A stretch of DNA of 48,244 nucleotides from a virus. A program made the position numbers and the translations under genes. Every line of letters starts with the position of its first letter. Position 1 is the stretch's first letter. The stretch lies in the UHGV virus genome UHGV-0308199. The stretch is one strand, 5' to 3'. The notes under the pieces are model-generated. The model was not told where the DNA came from. It ran no database searches and saw only the letters and a program-made list of their open reading frames with translations. Below are positions 1 through 28,531 of the stretch, one piece after another.

Positions 1-258
1 CAACAAACCTAATGCAGTCTTTAGTTTACAAATTGTTACATATATTATTCGTCAAATTTCATTATTATCAGAGATTAACAAGCATTGGCAAAGGTTGTCA
101 CTCAGTAATACTCACCATTATTAACTATTATTCACCATTATTTAGTATTCAAATTCTTTGAATGAGTTTGAAAGTGCCAGTCTTTACGTATTAATTCTTC
201 TGTGCAAGTATATATACACCCAATAGAGACTAATTAAGTCTTAGTATAAATATCTAAT

Positions 259-501
259 GTGAAGGACATAGCCATGAGCTTATTGCCTCGGGAAAACGCA
301 CCCCAAAAAAGATATAGACTTCTGAGAATATCAGAAGTGATTAATTTGACTGGCTTACCCAAGTCAACAATTTATCTAAAGATAAAGAATGATGAATTTC
401 CGAACCAAGTTTCTATCGGTTCTCGTTCTGTTGCATGGGTGGAGCATGAAGTTAATGAATGGATAGAGAAGAATATTCTCAATAGAAAATTAAACTCCTA
501 A
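259..501 (+). CDS. alpA: AlpA-family phage transcriptional regulator (HTH, excisionase-like)
   Basis: 80 aa; RLLRISEVINLTGLPKSTIYLKIKNDEFP...GSRSVAWVEHEVNEWI matches AlpA/Vis-type HTH pattern. Confidence 0.8.
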   Translation: MKDIAMSLLPRENAPQKRYRLLRISEVINLTGLPKSTIYLKIKNDEFPNQVSIGSRSVAWVEHEVNEWIEKNILNRKLNS

Positions 502-518
502 ATTGAGGTGGCAAATAT

Positions 519-1379
519 ATGGTTGACAATGTTTTTAAGAAGAAATTGGCATCAATTAAGAACGAACATGTGTCGGTGTTAGATAGTTACAAAGTAAGAT
601 CATTTAAAGAGACTCATAGCGACACGGCCTGTATTGTGCGTATTATTGAAATATATTCACTGAATAAGCTGCGAGCTAAAGGTGAAAAGCTGTATTCACT
701 TACGGGGTTAACAGTACCTGATACGGAAACTGTGGCGAATGAGATCAACCTGCTCCTGAGCCGTTATGCCCAGTTGTGTCGTCAGGAAGAGGAAGAGTTA
801 TCTTTCCGGCAGCGTGAAGTGACAAATGCGGAAGTTGCATGGAAAAGCACATTCTCAAAAAACGGCGTCAGTAGCATTGCTGAAGCCAAAACGAATAAAA
901 TGGGGCATGCTGAACGAGCGGATGCTGAACGGTATTACCATCTGGCTGTTTCCCGGTTGAATGAACAACATAGTCGATTGAGCACGATCAAGCTTTTGCC
1001 GGGAGTACTGGCCGATGAAGGAAACTACATTGGGAAGGGAATCGATAAGCGTTTACTGAATATATTTCCTCAATCCGGCCAGATCCCTGCTGATTTTATT
1101 TCTGTATTTAATGACAGTGACGTTGTCCGTGATATTAAATTTATTACTGATGCACTCAAGTCTTTATCTGATTCCGTGAGTGAAATTATTAGTCGTTGTA
1201 GCGTTCCAACTGATCGTTATGTATTAAATAACGGTGGAATGGCAAGAGCTATGGCTTACAGGGAGTACTATCGAGCAGATAATTATGTATTACGTTCAGT
1301 CGTAAGTGACCGGGATTATGTTGAGCATGTAATGAAATACAATCTGGTTACTGAGTACAAAAATAAAATCTTTTCTTAA
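519..1379 (+). CDS. hypothetical protein upstream of capsid-like gene
   Basis: 286 aa ORF, co-oriented, 17 nt after alpA; no motif recognised. Confidence 0.5.
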   Translation: MVDNVFKKKLASIKNEHVSVLDSYKVRSFKETHSDTACIVRIIEIYSLNKLRAKGEKLYSLTGLTVPDTETVANEINLLLSRYAQLCRQEEEELSFRQREVTNAEVAWKSTFSKNGVSSIAEAKTNKMGHAERADAERYYHLAVSRLNEQHSRLSTIKLLPGVLADEGNYIGKGIDKRLLNIFPQSGQIPADFISVFNDSDVVRDIKFITDALKSLSDSVSEIISRCSVPTDRYVLNNGGMARAMAYREYYRADNYVLRSVVSDRDYVEHVMKYNLVTEYKNKIFS

Positions 1380-1401
1380 ATACTTAAAAAGGTGAAAAAC
1401 T

Positions 1402-2406
1402 ATGTATGCCTTCAAAACTGAAAGGCCGGACGCAGCACGTCGTTATCATAATAAATTCGTCACTGGCACTAACTATCAGGAAGAATCAAACAGACGCTTT
1501 GCATTAAGCGAACCTACTGAAAATATACTGCGTACCTCAATTCTGGAATCCGGGTGGCTTATTAAAAATATTACCCTACGTGATGTTAACGCCGTGTCAG
1601 GTAATGCCGTCAATATTGGTGCCAGTGAACTGTATACCGGACGTGTGGATGGTGGCCGTTTCCACAAAAAAATGGCAATCAATGGTACGGAGTTCTTTCT
1701 GACAGAGACGGATACCTGCGCCCGGATCAGCTATTCCGATATGTCTCATATTTACCATACCGGCGTGCCGGATGAGTTTGAGAAAACGGTTGAGAGCTTT
1801 TTTGCCCAGGCATATGCGCTGGACATGCTGCGGGTCGGTTTCAACGGTGTGTCGATTGCAAATACTACAAACCCGGAAATCAATAAAAAAGGCGAGGATG
1901 TCAATATTGGCTGGCATGCACTGGCGAAAGCCTACGGGAACGGAAAGCAAATCATCTCTGAGCCTGTCACTCTGGGAGAGACTGGCACCTGGAAAAATAT
2001 TGATGCTCTGGCCAACCATCTGATTACAGAGCTTATTGCTGAGCAGTTTCGTGAAGATCCTCGTCTGGTTGTACTGGTTGGGGCAGAGCTGGCAGCACAT
2101 CAACGCCTGAAGTTATTTAATGCCGCAGACCGCCCGTCTGATGTGAATGCGGCACAGATGGCTACAAGTTCTGTTGCTGGCCGCTTTGCGTTTATTCCCC
2201 CGTTTATGCCGGGTAAGCGTCTGGCAGTAACGACGCTGGATAATCTGCATATTTACACTCAGGCGATAACACGCTGGTTTCGTGCTGAGTTTGATGATGA
2301 AAGCAGTGAATACGTGCATTCCTACCTGCGCAATGAAGGTTATGCACTCGGTGAACCTGAACTGTACGCGGCTGTTGATGAGTGCACCCTGACGTTTGCG
2401 GATTGA
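1402..2406 (+). CDS. P2-family major capsid protein (gpN)-like
   Basis: 334 aa; segments MLRVGFNGVS, DVNIGWHAL, EDPRLVVLVGAELAA, LDNLHIY fall in the same order as conserved blocks I recall from P2 gpN; from memory, not searched. Confidence 0.5.
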   Translation: MYAFKTERPDAARRYHNKFVTGTNYQEESNRRFALSEPTENILRTSILESGWLIKNITLRDVNAVSGNAVNIGASELYTGRVDGGRFHKKMAINGTEFFLTETDTCARISYSDMSHIYHTGVPDEFEKTVESFFAQAYALDMLRVGFNGVSIANTTNPEINKKGEDVNIGWHALAKAYGNGKQIISEPVTLGETGTWKNIDALANHLITELIAEQFREDPRLVVLVGAELAAHQRLKLFNAADRPSDVNAAQMATSSVAGRFAFIPPFMPGKRLAVTTLDNLHIYTQAITRWFRAEFDDESSEYVHSYLRNEGYALGEPELYAAVDECTLTFAD

Positions 2407-2419
2407 CTTAGCGACAGAA

Positions 2420-2446
2420 AGACCCGCTCAGAGGCGGGTCTCGTTT
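2420..2446 (+). terminator. hairpin after capsid-like gene (AGACCCGC-tcagag-GCGGGTCT, weak T tract)
   Basis: 8-bp stem immediately after the stop codon. Confidence 0.4.
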
Positions 2447-2544
2447 ACAGCATCAGGAAAAATGAAGAACTATTTTTAAGCAGAGGCTTAAGCATGCCAG
2501 CGTTAATTAATCCAGGCAATGATCAGTTTTCGGTTATAAATTTC

Positions 2545-2880
2545 TTGCCTCACCAGGAATGCGCGGGATATAGTTTAAAGGTTGCCGCAAAATCGGCAGC
2601 CGGGCGTAGGAACCCGTGTTATCTGAAGGCGATACTACACGCGCTAGGCGTGTTTTTTTGTGTCGCAGCTTTGACTCACCTAAAATTTATGGTGTGGTGG
2701 CTGATTGTATTTTTTTATTTTTTACGCCACATCATCAGAATTATGGTAGTCCAGGCGGGGCAGCTTTCGGGCTGGCCGGTATCCTTCAGAGCCGGTATTC
2801 CTACCCCCGTCTGGGCTACCACCCATGAGCGTAGGAACTCCGGTGGTAGCGTTACCCGCTATCTGAAGGAGGTTGCCATT
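2545..2880 (+). promoter_or_regulatory. structured leader: sigma70-like promoter (TTGCCT-18-TATAGT, 2545-2574), direct repeats GCGTAGGAAC...TATCTGAAGG (2604-2629 and 2829-2872) and an intrinsic terminator (2637-2660)
   Basis: Read directly; second repeat copy supplies GAAGGAGG RBS for the ATG at 2881; ORF-track ORF 2494..3084 is low-complexity over this stretch. Confidence 0.4.
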
Positions 2881-3084
2881 ATGGCTACAGTCCCTGCTTT
2901 ATCTCACCCTGAATTTACCTTTGTCTTTCTGGCTGTCCGCCGTACAGACCGTGATGCCCGTCCACGCCCTGTGCGTGTAATCGCAGAATGCGAGCATGCT
3001 GCACGCCTTAAACTTGCCACTGAATTTATCCTGAGCTTTGCTGCCCGTATCCCTGTGAAAAGAGCCGGGGAGGTGGTTGCATGA
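2881..3084 (+). CDS. small hypothetical protein (67 aa) downstream of the leader
   Basis: ATG at 2881 with GAAGGAGG RBS 9 nt upstream; in frame with 3' part of track ORF 2494..3084. Confidence 0.4.
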   Translation: MATVPALSHPEFTFVFLAVRRTDRDARPRPVRVIAECEHAARLKLATEFILSFAARIPVKRAGEVVA

Positions 3085-3317
3085 AATCCATGAATTTTAA
3101 GCAAGGCTGCATATTGAGTGAACAGGGGGAGAGTCGTCTGTTACGGGCGGCACTGGCCAGTGAGTTTCTTGCAGAGGTCTTGTCCGTGCCCACAGTGAAT
3201 GGAGCGAGAACTGTTTCAGCGGAAGGCGCTGCGGCTTTAGTGGCCTGTATTGCCGAACAACTGGATGGCGTTGTTAAGGAAACCAGCACAATTAAGGGAG
3301 TGATGCGCGATGAATAA
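3081..3317 (+). CDS. hypothetical protein
   Basis: 78 aa; start overlaps upstream stop (ATGA). Confidence 0.45.
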   Translation: MKSMNFKQGCILSEQGESRLLRAALASEFLAEVLSVPTVNGARTVSAEGAAALVACIAEQLDGVVKETSTIKGVMRDE

Positions 3318-3720
3318 TAATCAAAATTTAAAGGCGCATGCTTTACGAACAGCAGTCTTACGCTACTACATTGCTGATGCATTCATTTCCTTAATGGTGC
3401 GTGTTCATAATGAACCTGTTTATATTGAAGATGGCGAACGAATAGAACTCTCCCACGAAAAAGTGGTGAGTAATATTATTTACCATATTGAAATGCCGTG
3501 GGTGAATGAGTTTGGGGCTGATGCTGGTTGCATACTGGCCGCAGAGAAACTGGAAAAAATGCTTAAACCAGGCTTTATGTCAGAAAATATTCGCCTGTCA
3601 GTTTTTGGTGTCACAGAGATGCGTGAGGTTTACCGGGATATTATTTTCGGAGCACCTGATGGCGAACTACCCGAAGGTTTTGAATTTGTGAAGCCGGAAG
3701 GTCAGGAGGTGCTGCTGTGA
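3310..3720 (+). CDS. hypothetical protein
   Basis: 136 aa; stop overlaps primase GTG start. Confidence 0.5.
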   Translation: MNNNQNLKAHALRTAVLRYYIADAFISLMVRVHNEPVYIEDGERIELSHEKVVSNIIYHIEMPWVNEFGADAGCILAAEKLEKMLKPGFMSENIRLSVFGVTEMREVYRDIIFGAPDGELPEGFEFVKPEGQEVLL

Positions 3721-6404
3721 AAACACCGTCTGTATCCACGATTTCCGGAGCTGCAATTGGGCGCTGGCCTTATATCCTGTCAGCATTAGGTATTAAAGTA
3801 CCGTCCGCAGGACATCATGGGGCTTGCCCTGCCTGTGGTGGAAAAGATCGTTTTCGACTGGACGATAAAGCGGGGCGAGGGACGTGGTTTTGTAATCAGT
3901 GCGGTCATGGCGATGGTCTTGATCTGGTTCGTCTGGTGACAGGAAGAAAGATAAAAGAAGTCGCCGGGATGGTATCTGAGGCGCTTGCATTACCAGAAAT
4001 ACAGGAGAAGCCCGCATTGCCAGCCAGGAAAAAGGCCGCAGGAAAAGAAGCGGGCGCGGAGCGATATACCAGACTCAGACAGCAGTCCTGCAATGGTGAG
4101 CCGGTCTATCTGACAAATAAGAGCTTACACGGGTATTCACTTCCCTTGCTGTCACAGCCTTTGAATCTGGCCGGAATAACATTTTCCACCGGTTCATTAC
4201 TGCTGCCTTTGACGGATATTTCCGGGAATATTACTGGTGGCCAGCTTATCAATCCTGACGGGGATAAAAGTCTGCTGCCCGGTAGCCAGCTGTCTGGCGC
4301 ATTCATTGCCCTGACCGATATACCCGCTGAAACACCTGAACAGGTGATTATCACTGAGGGTTTTGCCACGGCGCTTACCGTCAGTCTGCTGACTGAAGGA
4401 TGGATCGTGGCGGCTGTCGCTGCCACCAATTTACTGAAGGTGACGGAGCAGATCCGAAAACGCTGGCCGGAAACCCGGATCATTCTGGCCGGAGATAATG
4501 ATCTGGCTGACGGCAAAGAAAACACCGGGCGTATTCAGGCAGAGAAAGCCGCCAAAGCGGTGGATGGCTGGGTAACGCTCCCTCCGGTACGCCATAAGGC
4601 TGACTGGGATGATTATCGGCAGGAAGTGGGGAAAGAACGGGCGAGAGATGCCTTTCGTGAAGAAATGACGCTGCATGGCAAAGGGCAGACCCGTTTACCA
4701 GAAGGGTTCCGGCTGACAAAAGAATATTTGTGGTACGACAAGCTGGTTAATAAGTCTGATGGTGATACAGAGATACGTAATATCAAAATTTGCAGTCCGT
4801 TGCGGGTGACGGCAATCACCAGTGATGCTGATGGAAGTAATTACGGGCGTTTGCTGGAATGGGAAGATACCAACGGAAACAGCCGTAAATGGGCAATGCC
4901 GATGGAGATGCTGGGCGGTAGCGGGGAAGAACTGCGCCGCGTTCTGCTGGTTAACGGGCTTTCTTACATCAACATTAACGGCATGGCCAGAGCATTCCTG
5001 ATGGAATATATCTCGCTGTGTAAACCGGACAGAAAAGTAACCTGTGTGAATAAAACTGGCTGGCACGGCGGGGTTTACGTTCTCCAGGATGAAGTGATAG
5101 GGCGCGAAGCCCAGTCAGTCATCTTACAAACATCGAGTGTGCAGGGGCGTGATTTTCGTGTCAGCGGCACATCAGAGGGCTGGCGTGAAAATATAGGCCG
5201 TTATTGCATAAAGAATGCCCGTCTTGCCTTTGCGGTGAGTCTGGCATTTGCTGCCCCCCTTCTGAAACTGGTTGGTATCGGCGGTGGAGGTTATCACCTC
5301 AAAGGGGAATCCACAGACGGTAAAACCACGACGATGAAAGTGGCTGCATCAGTATGTGGTGGAACAGATTTCTGGCATACGTGGCGGGCGACGGGGAATG
5401 CCTTAGAAGGAACGGCGAGCCGCCGCAATGATGCCACGCTGATGCTGGATGAAATCCGGGAGGTTGACGGCAGGGAGGCGGGAAATATCGCTTATATGCT
5501 GGCTAACGGGCAGGGCAAAGCCAGAGCCAGAACAGATGGTTCGGTAAGGGAAACCAACCGCTGGAATCTGTTGTTTCTGTCTACCGGGGAACTGTCACTG
5601 GTAGAGCATGCGGCAAGCGCCGGGGAACGTACGTATGCCGGGGTTGAGGTCAGAATGATCCAGATCCCAAGCGATTCGGGCAAGTATGGCGTGTTTGAAG
5701 AACTTCATGGCTTCAGTAGCGGGAAAACCCTGGCTGAGCATCTTGAGCAGCACGTAGCGCATTATCATGGTGCACCATTCCGCGACTGGCTGTATTGCCT
5801 GACCGCTGATCTGCCGGAACTGACCAGTCAGGCGAAAGCCTTATTGAAAGAGTATACCCGAAGGCTGACGCCGGAAAATGCCGGGAATCAGGTTGGCCGG
5901 GCTGTTACCCGTTTTGCTCTGGTTGCGATGGCCGGGGAGCTGGCCACAAAAGCGGGCATCACAGGATGGCCGGAGGGAGAGGCCTTTCGTGCCGCTCAAA
6001 GCTGTCTGGCTGCATGGATGGCTGACCGGGGCCATACAGCTAATCAGGAAGATAAAGCGGCACTTGAACAGGTTCGGGACTTCATGACGCGTAATCAGTT
6101 CAGTCGGTTTGCTGACTGGAATGACGACAGGAACCGGCCTGTTTCAATGATGGGATTCAGAAAAGTCGATAAAGGAGACAACGTGACAGAGCCGGTTGTG
6201 ACGTTCTACGTTCTCCCGTCAGGCTGGAAGGAGATCTGTAAGGGATTTGACTCGCGTAAGGTGGCCAGGTTGTGTGTGGACGCGGGCTGGCTGAAACCCG
6301 GTGAAGATGGCCGGACGCAAAACAGCATTCGCCTGCCAGAAATAGGGCTTAAACGTGTGTACCAGTTCAATACACAGGTACTGGGAAGCGCTGAACCTGA
6401 GTGA
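3717..6404 (+). CDS. P4 alpha-type primase-helicase (zinc-binding, TOPRIM, P-loop NTPase)
   Basis: 895 aa; CPACGG...CNQCGH zinc motif, ITEG and AGDND TOPRIM motifs, Walker A GESTDGKTT; GTG start. Confidence 0.9.
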   Translation: MKTPSVSTISGAAIGRWPYILSALGIKVPSAGHHGACPACGGKDRFRLDDKAGRGTWFCNQCGHGDGLDLVRLVTGRKIKEVAGMVSEALALPEIQEKPALPARKKAAGKEAGAERYTRLRQQSCNGEPVYLTNKSLHGYSLPLLSQPLNLAGITFSTGSLLLPLTDISGNITGGQLINPDGDKSLLPGSQLSGAFIALTDIPAETPEQVIITEGFATALTVSLLTEGWIVAAVAATNLLKVTEQIRKRWPETRIILAGDNDLADGKENTGRIQAEKAAKAVDGWVTLPPVRHKADWDDYRQEVGKERARDAFREEMTLHGKGQTRLPEGFRLTKEYLWYDKLVNKSDGDTEIRNIKICSPLRVTAITSDADGSNYGRLLEWEDTNGNSRKWAMPMEMLGGSGEELRRVLLVNGLSYININGMARAFLMEYISLCKPDRKVTCVNKTGWHGGVYVLQDEVIGREAQSVILQTSSVQGRDFRVSGTSEGWRENIGRYCIKNARLAFAVSLAFAAPLLKLVGIGGGGYHLKGESTDGKTTTMKVAASVCGGTDFWHTWRATGNALEGTASRRNDATLMLDEIREVDGREAGNIAYMLANGQGKARARTDGSVRETNRWNLLFLSTGELSLVEHAASAGERTYAGVEVRMIQIPSDSGKYGVFEELHGFSSGKTLAEHLEQHVAHYHGAPFRDWLYCLTADLPELTSQAKALLKEYTRRLTPENAGNQVGRAVTRFALVAMAGELATKAGITGWPEGEAFRAAQSCLAAWMADRGHTANQEDKAALEQVRDFMTRNQFSRFADWNDDRNRPVSMMGFRKVDKGDNVTEPVVTFYVLPSGWKEICKGFDSRKVARLCVDAGWLKPGEDGRTQNSIRLPEIGLKRVYQFNTQVLGSAEPE

Positions 6405-6419
6405 TTATCGCGTGAGTCT

Positions 6420-6625
6420 TATTTTTATGAGGTAACACTGGTAACAGAGGTAACACCCGTTACTGATGCGGTTCTTCAGTGTTACCAGTCAAAAATACTG
6501 ACTGGTAACAGAGGTAACAAAAAATGGTGTGTTACCACGCGTTACCTCTTGATTTTGCTAACTGGTAACAGATTAAATCCTTTTAAATCAATAGCGTTAC
6601 ACGTGTTACCAGTGTTACACGTTCA
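6420..6625. repeat. iteron array, candidate replication origin
   Basis: At least 10 copies of GGTAACA / TGTTACC in both orientations within ~200 bp just after the primase gene. Confidence 0.7.
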
Positions 6626-6686
6626 GAACAAGAGGTAGGGATCCAAATCCCTTCTTCTGGCGGGCAACAGTATAGGGCACAGAACG

Positions 6687-6959
6687 ATGAAGATGATGAG
6701 AATGTACTGCCCCACATGTCAGGCAGTAGCACGGATAGGTAAAACAAACAGGAAACACCCACAACTGTACGATGTGTACTGCTATTGCTCTAATGTGGAG
6801 TGCGGTCACTCGTTTGTGATGAATGTTGCTTTCTCCCATTCCGTTAGTCCAAGCGCGCTGAACGGGCAGGGAAGGGTTAAAGAGCTGATTGATGCAATTC
6901 CACCCGAGGAACGGGAAAAGGCTTTAAAGTTGCTGCTGGCTGCGCAAAAGAATGGGTAA
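6687..6959 (+). CDS. ogr: Ogr/Delta-family zinc-finger late-gene activator
   Basis: 90 aa; CPTCQ...CYCSNVECGHSF C2-C2 zinc finger typical of P2 Ogr / P4 Delta. Confidence 0.8.
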   Translation: MKMMRMYCPTCQAVARIGKTNRKHPQLYDVYCYCSNVECGHSFVMNVAFSHSVSPSALNGQGRVKELIDAIPPEEREKALKLLLAAQKNG

Positions 6960-7638
6960 AGTATGCGTCGGGAATGGCCGATCTGTTCCCGGAACCTGAA
7001 CACAGGATTTCAGTTTATACGGTCATAAAATTATTATTTTTCAACTGGTTATCTTCTTCATGTTTCACAAACCTTCATAAAATCACACACCTAAAATTAA
7101 TTATCCATTTAATATCATAGAGTTGCGTATTCAGGCCATAGATTCGACGGACAGTAAAACTGAAAAAAAATGAATTTCTTTTCATTCTTTTCAGTTCCTG
7201 TATCGCAGTACATCTCGAGGACTGGCACGGACTGGCGGTATCGTTTGTAAAAAATCCAGGCTGAAAATTTTTAGTGATATGAAAACCGCAGGCGGGTGCG
7301 GTGTAGTGCCGTTTTGGTCTGTCGAGCGTATATTTTCCTTTTTCACGATTGCTGCATATCAAAACGAATGTGCAGATATCAGGCCGTGTCAAACCGTGAA
7401 TCGTGGAGCCTAAATGCCCAAACTACGTTTGTAGACCTAGCTAGGGGAAGGTTTCCACATATACTGCTACCTATCTTCCAGTCGCTGGTGAGGATCAAGG
7501 TAAGCTAACTGGTGAACAAGAAAAGTACTTTCGTATCTTGCGTACTCGTTTTTTTTGATTAGTATGTACAGGTAGTAACTGGATGGTGAGAATTCGTCAT
7601 AACTTATCAAATTGCATGATGTTTATAGAGTATGAGTA

Positions 7639-8520
7639 ATGAGTCATAATAAAAAGGAATATGCTAAATTTTTCCGTCGCCCCATTTTTTCATCCTTAGC
7701 AAAAGGTAAGGATATTTCGGATTTATTTGGGAGTTTTGATTCTTACTGCTATGAAACACTGTTTTCAAACAATGATAATAATGAACATGAGATTTCACTA
7801 AGGGATTTATTTACATCATTATATGATTTTTTGCGTCTGAATTATAGAAATGAATATGTTTATAAGACAGCACTTGTCAATAAAATAATATTCGGTAAGC
7901 ACAGCCCAAAAACAAGTTCGTCGTCCATAGAGTTACCAATTAAAAACTCTATAGTGGATGTTGCGGTGTTTAATGGTACGTCTACAGCTTACGAGATTAA
8001 GACAGAGTATGATTCACCAAAAAGGTTGATTACTCAAGCCCCTGATTATTTGGATGTTTTTGATAAAGTGTATATAGTTACACATCCAGAGTATGCAAGT
8101 AAATATTGTGCTTTAAATCTCCCCAGAGTGGGAGTTATGGTTTTGAATAAAAAAGATCAATTGAGTGTCATTAAGGAGGCAGATTCAAATATTGATTATA
8201 TTAAAAGTGACAGCTTGTTTTCAGTTCTTAGAAAGGAAGAGTTCTTAGCTATAATAGAAGATTACACTTCAACTAAAATAAATATGCCTAACGGATTGGT
8301 TTATGAATATTGTAAAGAGATATTCATGCAGATGCCATTAAACATAGCAAATAAATACTTTATCTCTGCTATGAAAAAAAGATGTAACGATAAAGTTTTT
8401 TTGGATTATATTTATTCTCTTCCAGCATGTTTACGTGTTTTAGGTTATGCAACACCATTATCAAGAAAGCAAAAAGAATTCATCATGAATTTGATGGATG
8501 TAAAAATTAAAATTTGTTGA
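7639..8520 (+). CDS. cargo protein A, predicted PD-(D/E)xK-fold nuclease-like (candidate defense component)
   Basis: 293 aa; ~30-33% GC by eye; IVDVAVFNGTSTAYEIKTE gives D-x12-E-x-K signature. Confidence 0.7.
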   Translation: MSHNKKEYAKFFRRPIFSSLAKGKDISDLFGSFDSYCYETLFSNNDNNEHEISLRDLFTSLYDFLRLNYRNEYVYKTALVNKIIFGKHSPKTSSSSIELPIKNSIVDVAVFNGTSTAYEIKTEYDSPKRLITQAPDYLDVFDKVYIVTHPEYASKYCALNLPRVGVMVLNKKDQLSVIKEADSNIDYIKSDSLFSVLRKEEFLAIIEDYTSTKINMPNGLVYEYCKEIFMQMPLNIANKYFISAMKKRCNDKVFLDYIYSLPACLRVLGYATPLSRKQKEFIMNLMDVKIKIC

Positions 8521-8541
8521 TATCCTCAGGAGTTGTAAGTT

Positions 8542-9492
8542 ATGTATAGCCCATATTTGTATGCGAGAAGTACAGAGTTATTATGCCTTAGGGACCTCGT
8601 TGCGAAGGGAGTTAGCCTAAATGGTCTGCTACCAATTTTAGAACCAATTAACGTCAATACGAGAAATTTATTAACATGTTTAAATGTTTGGAATTCTGAC
8701 ATAATTGTTATCCTTAATCCTTATCAGGAAGATTTTTCTTCACACAATAACGTCTTAACTTTAAATCAAAATTTATCAAGTGTATTAACAAATAAAAATA
8801 ATATCATCTCTGGATATCTTATTCAGCCCAATACAACGATTAATGATATTAATAATTGGTTGAATGCTAACTTAAATAGACGAGTTGCACTTCTATATGA
8901 TAATCCATCATTATCCAACTCTGATATTCAGTTGTTGGCGACAAATCAATTGATTAGTTATCATGTTGTTTTAAATAATAAAATGCTTCCTAATCAGTGC
9001 GCTCTTCTTCCTTTGTCGAAGTTAATTATTATTAGCGATAACTTTAGAAAGTTAGCAAAAAATGCTGATTATAATGGGCCGGAACTTTTCACGCACGCAC
9101 ATCAATTCGTGGGACAAAATTACTTAGGATTTGGCGATTATACAATTACTGGCCAGGTACTAGATCTTGGAGGTGGTCAACCTTCTGCTGTTGCCGCACA
9201 TTTGGTGTTCAAGAATTTACAAGCGAATACAGTTTGGATTCGTCATTTTGTATCAAGCAACACGCAACGAGGAAGTTCAAATGTTACTGCAAAATTTTTA
9301 GATGTTTCAGATCAAATTACAAATCTTGTTCCCCAACATCCAACCCAGTTTGGCAGCAACATTGGTCTTAACTATTATTATTACAATAGTCAACCAACTG
9401 TAAGGCATTTCCCTGGGTTGCCAAAAAACAAACAGTATCAAATTACTCACCATATTTGTTTCATGCTGGATTTAATAGCAGGTCGTATTTAA
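8542..9492 (+). CDS. cargo protein B, unknown function (candidate defense component)
   Basis: 316 aa, N/L/Q-rich, ~28% GC; AGGAG RBS; 21-nt gap from gene A; 3' end overlaps convergent int by 21 nt; no Walker A/B seen. Confidence 0.7.
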   Translation: MYSPYLYARSTELLCLRDLVAKGVSLNGLLPILEPINVNTRNLLTCLNVWNSDIIVILNPYQEDFSSHNNVLTLNQNLSSVLTNKNNIISGYLIQPNTTINDINNWLNANLNRRVALLYDNPSLSNSDIQLLATNQLISYHVVLNNKMLPNQCALLPLSKLIIISDNFRKLAKNADYNGPELFTHAHQFVGQNYLGFGDYTITGQVLDLGGGQPSAVAAHLVFKNLQANTVWIRHFVSSNTQRGSSNVTAKFLDVSDQITNLVPQHPTQFGSNIGLNYYYYNSQPTVRHFPGLPKNKQYQITHHICFMLDLIAGRI

Positions 9493-10647
9493 TAAGCTAG
9501 CGTACCATTCCATCATTACTTGTCGATCTTTAATATATTGCGCATGATTGTAAGTACCTCGAATAGAGTTCTTATCAACATGCGCAAGCTGCATTTCAAT
9601 CCAGGCACTTTCAAACCCATGCTCATGCAAGATGGTGCTCATGGTATGCCTGAAACCGTGACCCGTTAACCGACCGTGATAACCCAGTAGTTTTATCACT
9701 TTGTTGATGCTGGCTTCGCTCATTGGTTTACTGACGTCATTCCGGCCAGGGAAAACGAGGCTGTAATTCCCTGTTATTTCTTGCAGCTTTTTCAGGATAT
9801 TGATCGCCTGAGTTGATAACGGAACCAGATGGGGGCGGCGTTTCTTCATCCGTTCTTTGGGGATCTCCCATAAGGCATTATCTAAATCAAACTCAGCCCA
9901 TTCCGCTGCACGTAGTTCAATTGTTCGCACGCCTGTTAGCATCAACAGCTGCGTGGCGTATTTGGTAACTAAACTGCCCTGATAGTTATCCAGAGCATTA
10001 ACGAACTCGGGCAACTCGCTTTCAGTCAGGAACGGGAAGTGTTGGGTTTTAGGTTTGTTGAGTGCGATAGCTAAATCGGGTGCAAAATTATACTTTGCTC
10101 TACCAGTGGCAACAGCATAACGAAGCACTTCACCACAGCGGCGGCGGATCTTACTGGTTTGCTCTAGCGCACCTCTTTTCTCTATTTTTTGCAGGACGGT
10201 TAGCAGTTCTAATGGTTCAATCTGCTCAATTGGGCGCTGGCCGATAAAAGGAAAAATATCCTTTTCCATACAATTGAGAACCTCTTTTGCATAACCCTCT
10301 GACCAGGTGGCTTTTTTCGATGAGTGCCATTCTCTGGCCACAGACTCAAAGCTGTTCTCATGCGCGAACTGCAAAGCAATCTTATCTGCTTTTCTGGCTT
10401 CACTTGGGTTTATCCCGTTGGCTAACATCGAACGCGCTTCATCACGTTTGGTACGTGCCTGTGCCAACGACACATCGCCATATACGCCAAAGGAAATCAT
10501 CTTAGGCTTACCTGCAAAGCGATAGCGAAAACGCCAGCCTTTACTGCCCGCTGTGTCGATCAGGAGTGATAGCCCCATACCATCGTTAAGCGTATAGGGT
10601 TTGTCCTTCGGTTTTGCTCTTTTTATTTGGATGTCAGATAGCAGCAT
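9472..10647 (-). CDS. int: tyrosine integrase, P4/CP4-57 family
   Basis: N-terminus LSDIQIKRAKPKDKPYTLNDGMGLSLLI...WRFRYRF (arm-binding type); C-terminus HGFRHT...LAH...GTYNHAQY catalytic motifs; start taken at internal Met (10647). Confidence 0.9.
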   Translation of the reverse strand: MLLSDIQIKRAKPKDKPYTLNDGMGLSLLIDTAGSKGWRFRYRFAGKPKMISFGVYGDVSLAQARTKRDEARSMLANGINPSEARKADKIALQFAHENSFESVAREWHSSKKATWSEGYAKEVLNCMEKDIFPFIGQRPIEQIEPLELLTVLQKIEKRGALEQTSKIRRRCGEVLRYAVATGRAKYNFAPDLAIALNKPKTQHFPFLTESELPEFVNALDNYQGSLVTKYATQLLMLTGVRTIELRAAEWAEFDLDNALWEIPKERMKKRRPHLVPLSTQAINILKKLQEITGNYSLVFPGRNDVSKPMSEASINKVIKLLGYHGRLTGHGFRHTMSTILHEHGFESAWIEMQLAHVDKNSIRGTYNHAQYIKDRQVMMEWYASLLNTTCY

Positions 10648-10895
10648 GTGTATAGAAAAAAGATCGAACTCAGTTATACACAATGTTATACGCAAAGATG
10701 TATAGATTCCATTAGAAATAATGGTACTTTGCTGGACGAGTATAAGGAGATGATATCAGTTAAAACAGTGAGTTATGGAATTAATTGAACTTAGTGAGAA
10801 GTGTTCATGGTGTCCCCTGCAGACATCTACTTGAAGCGGCAGGGGATTGATTGGAATGGTGTTTTTTAGATGTGAGAAATATTTTACCCGCTATT

Positions 10896-28375: not shown

Positions 28376-28450
28376 GGGTCAGTCGTATAAAGGTCATTAC
28401 GGAAGGCTGTTAACCTTCTTATCGTGGTTCGAGTCCACGCTGTCCCGCCA
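28376..28450 (+). tRNA. tRNA, anticodon GUU (Asn) by manual fold
   Basis: Cloverleaf: acceptor 6/7 bp, anticodon stem GAAGG/CCTTC, loop CTGTTAA, T-arm CGTGG-TTCGAGT-CCACG, encoded CCA. Confidence 0.55.
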
Positions 28451-28455
28451 AATAT

Positions 28456-28531
28456 GCTGGTTTAGCTCCAATGGTAGAGCAGTCGCCTTGTAAGCGAATG
28501 GGTAGCGGTTCAAGTCCGTTAACCAGCACCA
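28456..28531 (+). tRNA. tRNA, anticodon UGU (Thr) by manual fold
   Basis: Acceptor GCTGGTT/AACCAGC 7/7, D-arm GCTC-CAATGGTA-GAGC, anticodon loop CTTGTAA, T-arm AGCGG-TTCAAGT-CCGTT, encoded CCA. Confidence 0.65.

Follow-up and report, generated by a model that had tools for sequence, protein, structure and literature searches.

With a probability of about 0.9, the DNA in front of the primase operon in virus genome UHGV-0308199 is the RNA immunity switch of a P4-related integrative island of Escherichia coli, homologous to the immunity region of satellite phage P4. (Throughout, the window is the whole stretch analysed, 48,244 nucleotides.) A preliminary description of this DNA had noticed a promoter, a duplicated motif and a terminator, and had likened the layout to P4 immunity. 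The comparison was right in kind, and the relationship goes beyond resemblance: P4 carries the same pair of RNAs, isrK and C4, in the same order, so the RNAs of the window are homologues of P4 seqA/t1 and CI RNA. The small RNA proposed to pair with the repeats had not been located; it is encoded by a C4/CI gene at 2739-2826, between the two motif copies. Every sequence feature listed in that description was found where it had been placed, or at most 1 nt away.

Several kinds of evidence converge: membership of both RNAs in known families; exact complementarity between exposed C4 segments and their targets; three-way covariation of C4 loops, upstream targets and downstream targets; overlap of one target with a ribosome-binding site; a conserved terminator; and a conserved open frame. 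The switch is a cleanly built regulator of a known type, P4 small-RNA immunity, with a pairing specificity of its own. The island that hosts it is more unusual than the switch, in that it carries a P2-family capsid gene. The elements of the switch and the operon behind it are as follows.

2494 to 3084, + strand: eta-like long ORF of 196 aa, in frame with kil, assigned by identity to P4 Eta and by its conserved open frame
2545 to 2574, + strand: candidate constitutive promoter, homologue of P4 PLE, assigned by consensus scan, hexamers as in P4 and conserved offset
2581 to 2658, + strand: isrK-family leader RNA (P4 seqA region; Rfam RF01394), with two 5' hairpins, the first target copy and the terminator
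2606 to 2612, + strand: upstream target b1 (GTAGGAA), in the loop of leader hairpin 2, complementary to C4 2798-2804
2622 to 2629, + strand: upstream target a1 (TCTGAAGG), complementary to C4 loop 2783-2790, 8 nt before the terminator stem
2637 to 2659, + strand: Rho-independent terminator in the position of P4 t1, ACACGC-GCTAG-GCGTGT plus a T run
2739 to 2826, + strand: C4 antisense RNA (Rfam RF01695), homologue of P4 CI RNA, the immunity factor
2782 to 2790, + strand: antisense element a' (UCCUUCAGA), in the loop of C4 hairpin 2
2798 to 2804, + strand: antisense element b' (UUCCUAC), in the single-stranded joint of C4
2815 to 2850, + strand: alternative hairpin presenting b2 in its loop; 2815-2823 pairs with 2842-2850
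2831 to 2837, + strand: downstream target b2 (GTAGGAA), at +23 from the C4 core in almost all loci
2862 to 2870, + strand: downstream target a2 (TCTGAAGGA; P4 seqC), overlapping the Shine-Dalgarno sequence
2881 to 3084, + strand: Kil/Icd-like ORF of 67 aa, first gene translatable from the 2545 promoter, assigned by NF033153 and identity to P4 Kil
3081 to 6404, + strand: controlled operon, comprising orf78, orf136 and an 895-aa primase (Zn-ribbon, Toprim, DUF927)

The whole 48,244-base window was scanned with Rfam at curated thresholds. C4 was matched over the entire model (positions 1-87 of 87) with 81.1 bits, against a gathering score of 45 and 74.9 bits for P4 CI RNA. The RNA is about 85% identical to the P4 CI region, and its predicted fold of -47.8 kcal/mol is far more stable than expected (z = -5.3). 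The leader likewise spans the full isrK model (positions 1-77 of 77; 68.9 bits, gathering score 50; P4, 60.8 bits). The c4-a1b1 family (RF03163) stayed below its gathering score at 2568-2620 (43.8 versus 46.7 bits, E = 1e-9), a stretch that isrK covers, and P4 itself falls short on this model in the same way (44.1 bits). Folding of the leader, one of the checks put forward in the preliminary description, gave no support: the isrK fold is no stabler than those of shuffled sequences (z = -0.74). Nevertheless, six pairs of leader hairpin 1 carry compensatory changes among 27 leaders.

The leader begins at a sigma70-like promoter that had been correctly reported: TTGCCT at 2545-2550, an 18-nt spacer, and TATAGT at 2569-2574, with a predicted start at about 2581. 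It is the sole promoter-like match on the + strand within 1500-4500, but matches of this quality occur at chance level (4 sites versus 3.7 expected in the consensus scan). The promoter is therefore taken as real because it is conserved, not because of its match score. About 45 of 48 distinct homologous leaders have a TAnnGT -10 element at constant offset, and a TTGC-type -35 element lies 18 nt 5' of it in about 29 of 48 distinct upstream sequences; both hexamers are identical in the window and phage P4, and position 1 of the isrK model falls 7 nt past the -10 element.

At the other end of the leader lies the intrinsic terminator, also as first described, with its stem at 2637-2653 and a T run reaching 2659. 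A terminator hairpin followed by six to eight T residues is present in all 52 distinct leaders listed, and the outermost of five predicted stem pairs flips from G-C to C-G in seven of 27. The terminator sits where P4-type immunity has t1: between promoter and RNA gene, directly past the upstream target. (The roles of t1, t4 and timm in P4 were reportedly analysed by Briani et al. in 2000.)

The duplicated motif was borne out in full. Its first half, GCGTAGGAAC, occurs at 2604 and 2829 and its second half, TATCTGAAGG, at 2620 and 2860, with no other occurrence on either strand of the 48,244 bases; both copies have the halves in the same order on the same strand. The downstream copy also doubles as ribosome-binding site, as proposed, since TATCTGAAGG there continues into AGG to give the Shine-Dalgarno sequence AAGGAGG (2866-2872), 8 nt before the ATG at 2881. 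The downstream target thus overlaps the ribosome-binding site of the first translatable, Kil/Icd-like ORF, which is the arrangement of P4-type immunity. The two exposed segments of C4 are exact complements (8-9 nt and 7 nt) of both motif halves in both the upstream and downstream copies: UCCUUCAGA (2782-2790) is complementary to TCTGAAGG(A), and UUCCUAC (2798-2804) to GTAGGAA.

These intermolecular helices were examined in an alignment of 51 distinct related loci (alignment A3). Upstream, 99.6% of cells are paired and nine of 15 pairs are changed on both sides; downstream, the values are 99.1% and nine of 16. Individually, the b1 helix has seven pairs (100% paired, three with two-sided changes), the a1 helix eight (99.3%, six) and the a2 helix nine (98.5%, six). 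When the partners were slid by one to three columns, pairing dropped to 35-54%. Chance was rejected as an explanation of the repetition, since neither 10-mer is found more than twice in 48 kb and both copies covary with the C4 loops.

A broader search used a C4-core pattern in which the loop positions were left free. It found 46 viral contigs and 76 species genomes, the genomes being mostly of Enterobacterales, with a few of Burkholderiales, Pseudomonas and Methylococcales. Among 96 distinct sequences, the six variable bases of loop A occur in 28 variants, and loop B in three. An exact 8-nt complement of a locus's own loop A is present upstream in 76 of the 96 loci and downstream in 80; for loop B, exact complements are found in 88 and 87. 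When a locus was instead compared with loops of a different type, taken from other loci, no more than 1.5% of comparisons gave a match. Loci outside the Enterobacterales mostly fail the exact-complement test (L052, L069, L091, L092, L102 and L118, from Ralstonia, Cupriavidus, Methylococcales and Pandoraea). At least for the 'CAC' type of loop B, checked in Pantoea (L093), the failure reflects a 1-nt register shift with pairing retained.

Calculated duplex energies discriminate poorly: the loop-target duplexes of the window (-14.0 and -11.0 kcal/mol) are about 1-2 standard deviations better than those with shuffled targets (means about -9 and -8, sd about 2). The case consequently rests on covariation and on comparison of cognate with P4 targets. 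In that comparison, loop A of the window C4 gives -14.0 and -14.3 kcal/mol on its own targets versus -3.7 and -8.7 on those of P4. This weak pairing predicts that the window and P4 are heteroimmune, with cross-immunity unlikely.

Phage P4 (NC_001609), scanned in the same way, yields isrK (8692-8615) and C4 (8507-8420), both on one strand and ordered as in the window. The two sequences align from the -35 element to the start codon, and the motif bases differ in step at the loops and at both target sets: the loops are CCUUCAGA and UUCCUAC in the window but CCUGUGAA and UUCUCAC in P4, with the targets changed to match. The two share CTTGCCT and GGATATAGTTT letter for letter, and conservation extends to the leader hairpins, the T run, the C4 body and AGGAGG..ATGGCTACA. 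The P4 immunity region reads PLE, seqA/t1, cI (CI RNA), seqC, kil nested in eta, alpha operon. The window shares the position of the terminator; an RNA gene between two target sets; a second target set overlapping the ribosome-binding site of a Kil/Icd-like ORF of 65-67 aa; a long in-frame ORF that begins upstream of the promoter; and a primase operon downstream. The alpA/vis gene and the tyrosine integrase are related as well. There are also differences: the spacer from terminator to RNA gene is 27 nt shorter in the window; its eta-like ORF starts 88 nt past the capsid gene, whereas P4 eta overlaps the vis stop codon; and the window, unlike P4, lacks epsilon, sid and psu and has a primase with a DUF927 C-terminal part.

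In P4-type immunity, RNase P and 3' processing release mature CI RNA from the leader transcript, and Rho-dependent (timm) and other (t4) termination sites lie downstream. P4 CI RNA, processed from the leader, pairs with the flanking seqA and seqC to cause premature termination (PMC4825925). Homology to P4 suggests that processing, termination and translational bypass would proceed similarly in the island. The constitutive promoter would produce an untranslated leader from about 2581, bearing b1 and a1 and then the terminator; transcripts ending there would be a short isrK-type RNA of about 78 nt. Read-through transcripts would include C4, which would be excised and accumulate. Its elements a' and b' would pair with a1 and b1 of nascent leaders, which in P4 favours the stop at the leader terminator and so autoregulates CI. 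They would also pair with b2 and a2, 3' of C4. Translation of the kil/icd-like ORF would then be blocked, the RNA would stay untranslated, and transcription would end before the primase operon, keeping the island silent, with immunity to a second copy that shares its specificity. Finally, an upstream promoter, probably activated by Ogr/Delta, would send in transcripts from the alpA-capsid operon, on which the eta-like ORF (ATG 2494) would be translated across leader, terminator and C4, overriding the switch.

C4 is most likely processed out of the same transcript as the leader. The consensus scan revealed no separate promoter-like site 5' of C4, which is consistent with production by processing. 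Conserved structure also extends past the C4 gene: the alternative hairpin at 2815-2850 is paired in 98.9% of cells, with double changes in five of nine pairs (slid controls, 23-68%). It uses the 3' arm of the C4 closing stem and is therefore mutually exclusive with the folded stem. Possible roles include processing, presentation of b2, and service as a termination site.

The long ORF at 2494-3084 had been considered probably non-coding. For transcripts from the 2545 promoter this holds, because the ATG of the ORF lies upstream of them (51 nt 5' of the -35 element); the frame, however, is conserved open. The ORF spans promoter, leader, terminator and C4 gene and is 49% identical over 180 aa to P4 Eta (199 aa). 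Nested within it, the 67-aa ORF is 53% identical to P4 Kil, with ribosome-binding site and ATG conserved; the NF033153 Icd-like domain covers its residues 12-59, or 141-188 of the 196-aa ORF. A kil start codon was identified in 24 of the 96 loci by a strict ribosome-binding-site pattern and in 75 by a looser one. In 61 of these 75, the frame of the ATG corresponding to 2881 is open for at least 300 nt upstream (other frames, one and six). Counted by frame, stop triplets amount in the variable spacer to 1, 23 and 25, in the leader to 8, 44 and 18, and between C4 and the ATG to 16, 149 and 58. Eleven different lengths separate leader and C4, and nine of these agree modulo 3. Upstream of the leader start, 50 of 56 distinct loci have an in-frame ATG that follows a GAGG- or GGAG-like Shine-Dalgarno sequence. 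The frame, kept through a promoter, a terminator and an RNA gene, offers a natural example of dual selection at the level of RNA and of translatability.

In the part of Forti et al. (1999) relayed by PMC10111431, the constitutive promoter of P4 is internal to eta and kil is nested; Kil is a truncated form made on read-through, the late promoter upstream is the sole source of full-length Eta, and translating eta keeps transcription from terminating. In the P4 sequence, an in-frame ATG at 8767 overlaps the vis stop (ATGA) and opens a 199-aa ORF. The eta-like ORF of the window is probably translated on read-through transcripts from upstream, and probably on those only; such transcripts would bypass immunity. 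An unbroken, ribosome-covered mRNA over 2494-3084 is then the state expected after induction. The preliminary description had held that such an mRNA would count against regulation by RNA; since the ORF is translatable on induced transcripts, this objection is not valid. In the window the bypass route is less certain than in P4, because the eta ATG lies 88 nt past the capsid gene, beyond a GC hairpin, and is translationally uncoupled from alpA. Nor is translational bypass universal, as a minority of loci have no eta-like long ORF. In five loci (L048, L067, L094, L110 and L114), isrK, C4 and kil are retained, yet stops close the frame just 5' of the kil ATG; the eta-less loci include some capsid-carrying relatives.

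The main rival to the P4 model is suggested by isrK - orf45 (STnc1160) - anrP of the Salmonella prophage Gifsy-1, which resembles the window in having an isrK-family leader with its own terminator, read-through, and a C4-like processed RNA complementary to the isrK RNA (PMC4825925). Under an IsrK-type mechanism, the short terminated leader RNA would be a trans regulator that opens the ribosome-binding site by binding either free C4 RNA or the C4-like part of transcripts that read through; the upstream motif would then be an anti-antisense decoy or activator, not a site of C4-promoted termination. The leader is indeed a full-length isrK family member with its own terminator. In Gifsy-1, IsrK acting in trans raises orf45-anrP translation more than 100-fold, and the authors note its complementarity with C4-like STnc1160 (PMC4825925). 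The complementarity in the window is compatible with either direction of control. However, the nearest relative by sequence and gene context is P4, where CI RNA represses and seqA is required for immunity, not Gifsy-1. The Gifsy-1 RNA is described as trans-activating an antirepressor gene of a lambdoid prophage, whereas the window holds a P4-type satellite with a replication operon and has no antirepressor gene downstream. We rate the IsrK-type mechanism as unlikely for these reasons, and note that it and the P4 model are not mutually exclusive and can coexist.

Two other explanations dispense with a trans-acting RNA, and both fare worse. That the region is a plain gene for a 196-aa Icd-like protein, its RNA-like motifs incidental, agrees with the PGAP/RefSeq annotation, with a frame open in most relatives, and with an upstream ATG preceded by a GAGG-type Shine-Dalgarno sequence. 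Yet the family domain spans just the last 48 of 196 residues; within the ORF lie two Rfam RNAs, backed by structural and intermolecular covariation, as well as a promoter that is conserved and an intrinsic terminator with its T run of 6-8; and several relatives keep the RNAs without the open frame. Dual use of the sequence, as in P4 eta, accounts for both sets of facts. The plain gene is very improbable. Scarcely credible is a purely cis-acting attenuator, whose terminator and antiterminator folds would sense a ligand, a leader peptide or a protein. A promoter followed by a terminator before the first gene would suit it, as would the conserved alternative hairpin; but the motif covaries with the loops of an RNA gene 150-200 nt away, which a cis mechanism does not need. 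A riboswitch or leader-peptide attenuator in particular was rejected, as the leader matches no Rfam riboswitch or leader family and contains no short ORF within 2581-2637.

The preferred P4 model has a further parallel in the immI region of phages P1 and P7, for which the Rfam families C4 and c4-a1b1 are named. This region, reportedly described by Citron and Schuster in 1990 and by Riedel in 1993, is said to have the order c4 RNA, icd, ant. Its C4 RNA reportedly has two antisense elements, with targets a1/b1 upstream and a2/b2 over an Icd-type ribosome-binding site, and is said to turn off downstream genes by blocking icd translation. The likeness to the window lies in a C4-family RNA, flanking targets and an Icd-type ORF. 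P1 controls an antirepressor (ant), whereas the window controls a replication operon: Pfam and PHROGs searches found no ant or other antirepressor gene after the icd-like ORF, which is followed by orf78, orf136 and the primase.

The value of the switch itself is modest: it is a clean, unannotated case of textbook antisense-RNA control. RefSeq annotates neither RNA at the locus, so that anyone mining the island would miss its main regulator. Roughly 30 natural, orthogonal loop/target specificities of fixed geometry may be of use in studies of satellite cross-immunity, and the table of specificities may supply parts for synthetic RNA regulators. In RefSeq, the whole dual-use ORF (also L001 8494-9084) bears the label 'host cell division inhibitor Icd-like protein'. 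The PHROGs name for the Kil family, 'transcriptional repressor', is left over from the old P4 'cI protein' assignment. A megablast of 2400-3100 against a phage collection returned the C4 segment as sole match, at 82%, in two Klebsiella phages. In Klebsiella phage vB_KpnS_KpLi5 (OQ830459 34552-34667), the C4 RNA sequence lies beneath an Icd-like CDS.

The host island comprises window positions 1-10,822 (about 10.8 kb), between dsdC and tRNA-Arg, and is present in 421 of 5,426 complete E. coli genomes (at least 99% identity and 80% coverage), including the ST131 strain JJ1886. Its genes run in the order alpA/vis-like, orf286, P2-family major capsid, eta/kil with the RNA switch, orf78, orf136, DUF927 primase, Ogr/Delta zinc finger, sce7726, sce7725 and integrase. 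Those ahead of the switch are as follows.

201 to 218, + strand: dyad TGT-N12-ACA, a candidate late (Ogr/Delta-type) promoter, 56 nt before alpA
274 to 501, + strand: alpA/vis-like gene
519 to 1379: orf286, a 286-aa gene of unknown function between alpA and eta
1402 to 2406: P2-family major capsid gene, between alpA and eta

The island and P4 have in common alpA, kil, the N-terminal part of the primase (38% identical to P4 alpha), cII/sce7726 and int. SatelliteFinder defines P4-like elements by seven components: int, psu, delta, sid, alpA, epsilon and alpha (PMC10085698). Of these, the island has int, alpA, an alpha-related primase and an Ogr/Delta zinc-finger protein; the set is incomplete, with no BLASTP match to sid, psu or epsilon. 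The same gene order recurs in divergent relatives with other immunity types (L009, L030, L048, L053 from Kosakonia, L059 from Pectobacterium, L062 from Citrobacter and L094 from Rahnella). Searches of Pfam, PHROGs, NCBIfam, PADLOC and PDB sequences gave no match to orf286; that it encodes a scaffold is a guess.

A search of the literature found no description of P4-type satellites with a capsid gene of their own. We tentatively propose, as a reading less likely than not, that the island represents an undescribed branch of P4-related satellites in which a P2-family major capsid protein replaces sid and psu, the immunity cassette is placed behind the capsid operon so that late transcription lifts immunity, and the leader RNA serves as a decoy for C4. 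Were this so, Ogr/Delta-driven transcription of alpA, orf286 and the capsid gene would enter eta and lift RNA immunity, tying capsid production to the onset of replication. With the leader RNA as decoy, the many specificities would be mutually blind switches among co-resident elements.

The transcripts reading through eta might originate at the dyad at 201-218, if this is a late promoter; a dyad of this kind also precedes vis at P4 PLL. The island contains two TGT-N12-ACA dyads only, at 201-218 and 6613-6630, lying 56-57 nt 5' of the starts of alpA (274) and of the ogr/delta-like gene (6687; the gene spans 6687-6959). These are the positions of Ogr/Delta-dependent late promoters, which by themselves are suggestive; in the window as a whole, the dyad is not enriched (10 found versus 13.7 expected).

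Between the ogr/delta-like gene and the integrase, the sce7726/sce7725 pair (7639-9492) occupies the place of P4 cII, which is itself sce7726-like; the PADLOC model 'cll' matches the first gene. The pair may be cargo or a defence slot. Directly past the island, at 10808-48244, lies a P22-like prophage encoding a P22 portal, coat, stabilisation protein and injectosome protein, as well as RecT and a DnaB-type helicase. This neighbour is not a P2-type phage and so is no obvious helper. Identity to a strain that has the island only stops at 10822, 15 nt inside the tRNA-Arg gene, and the island and the prophage appear to stand in tandem at one attachment site. Within the prophage, genes for tRNA-Asn (GTT) and tRNA-Thr (TGT) adjoin at 28376-28531.
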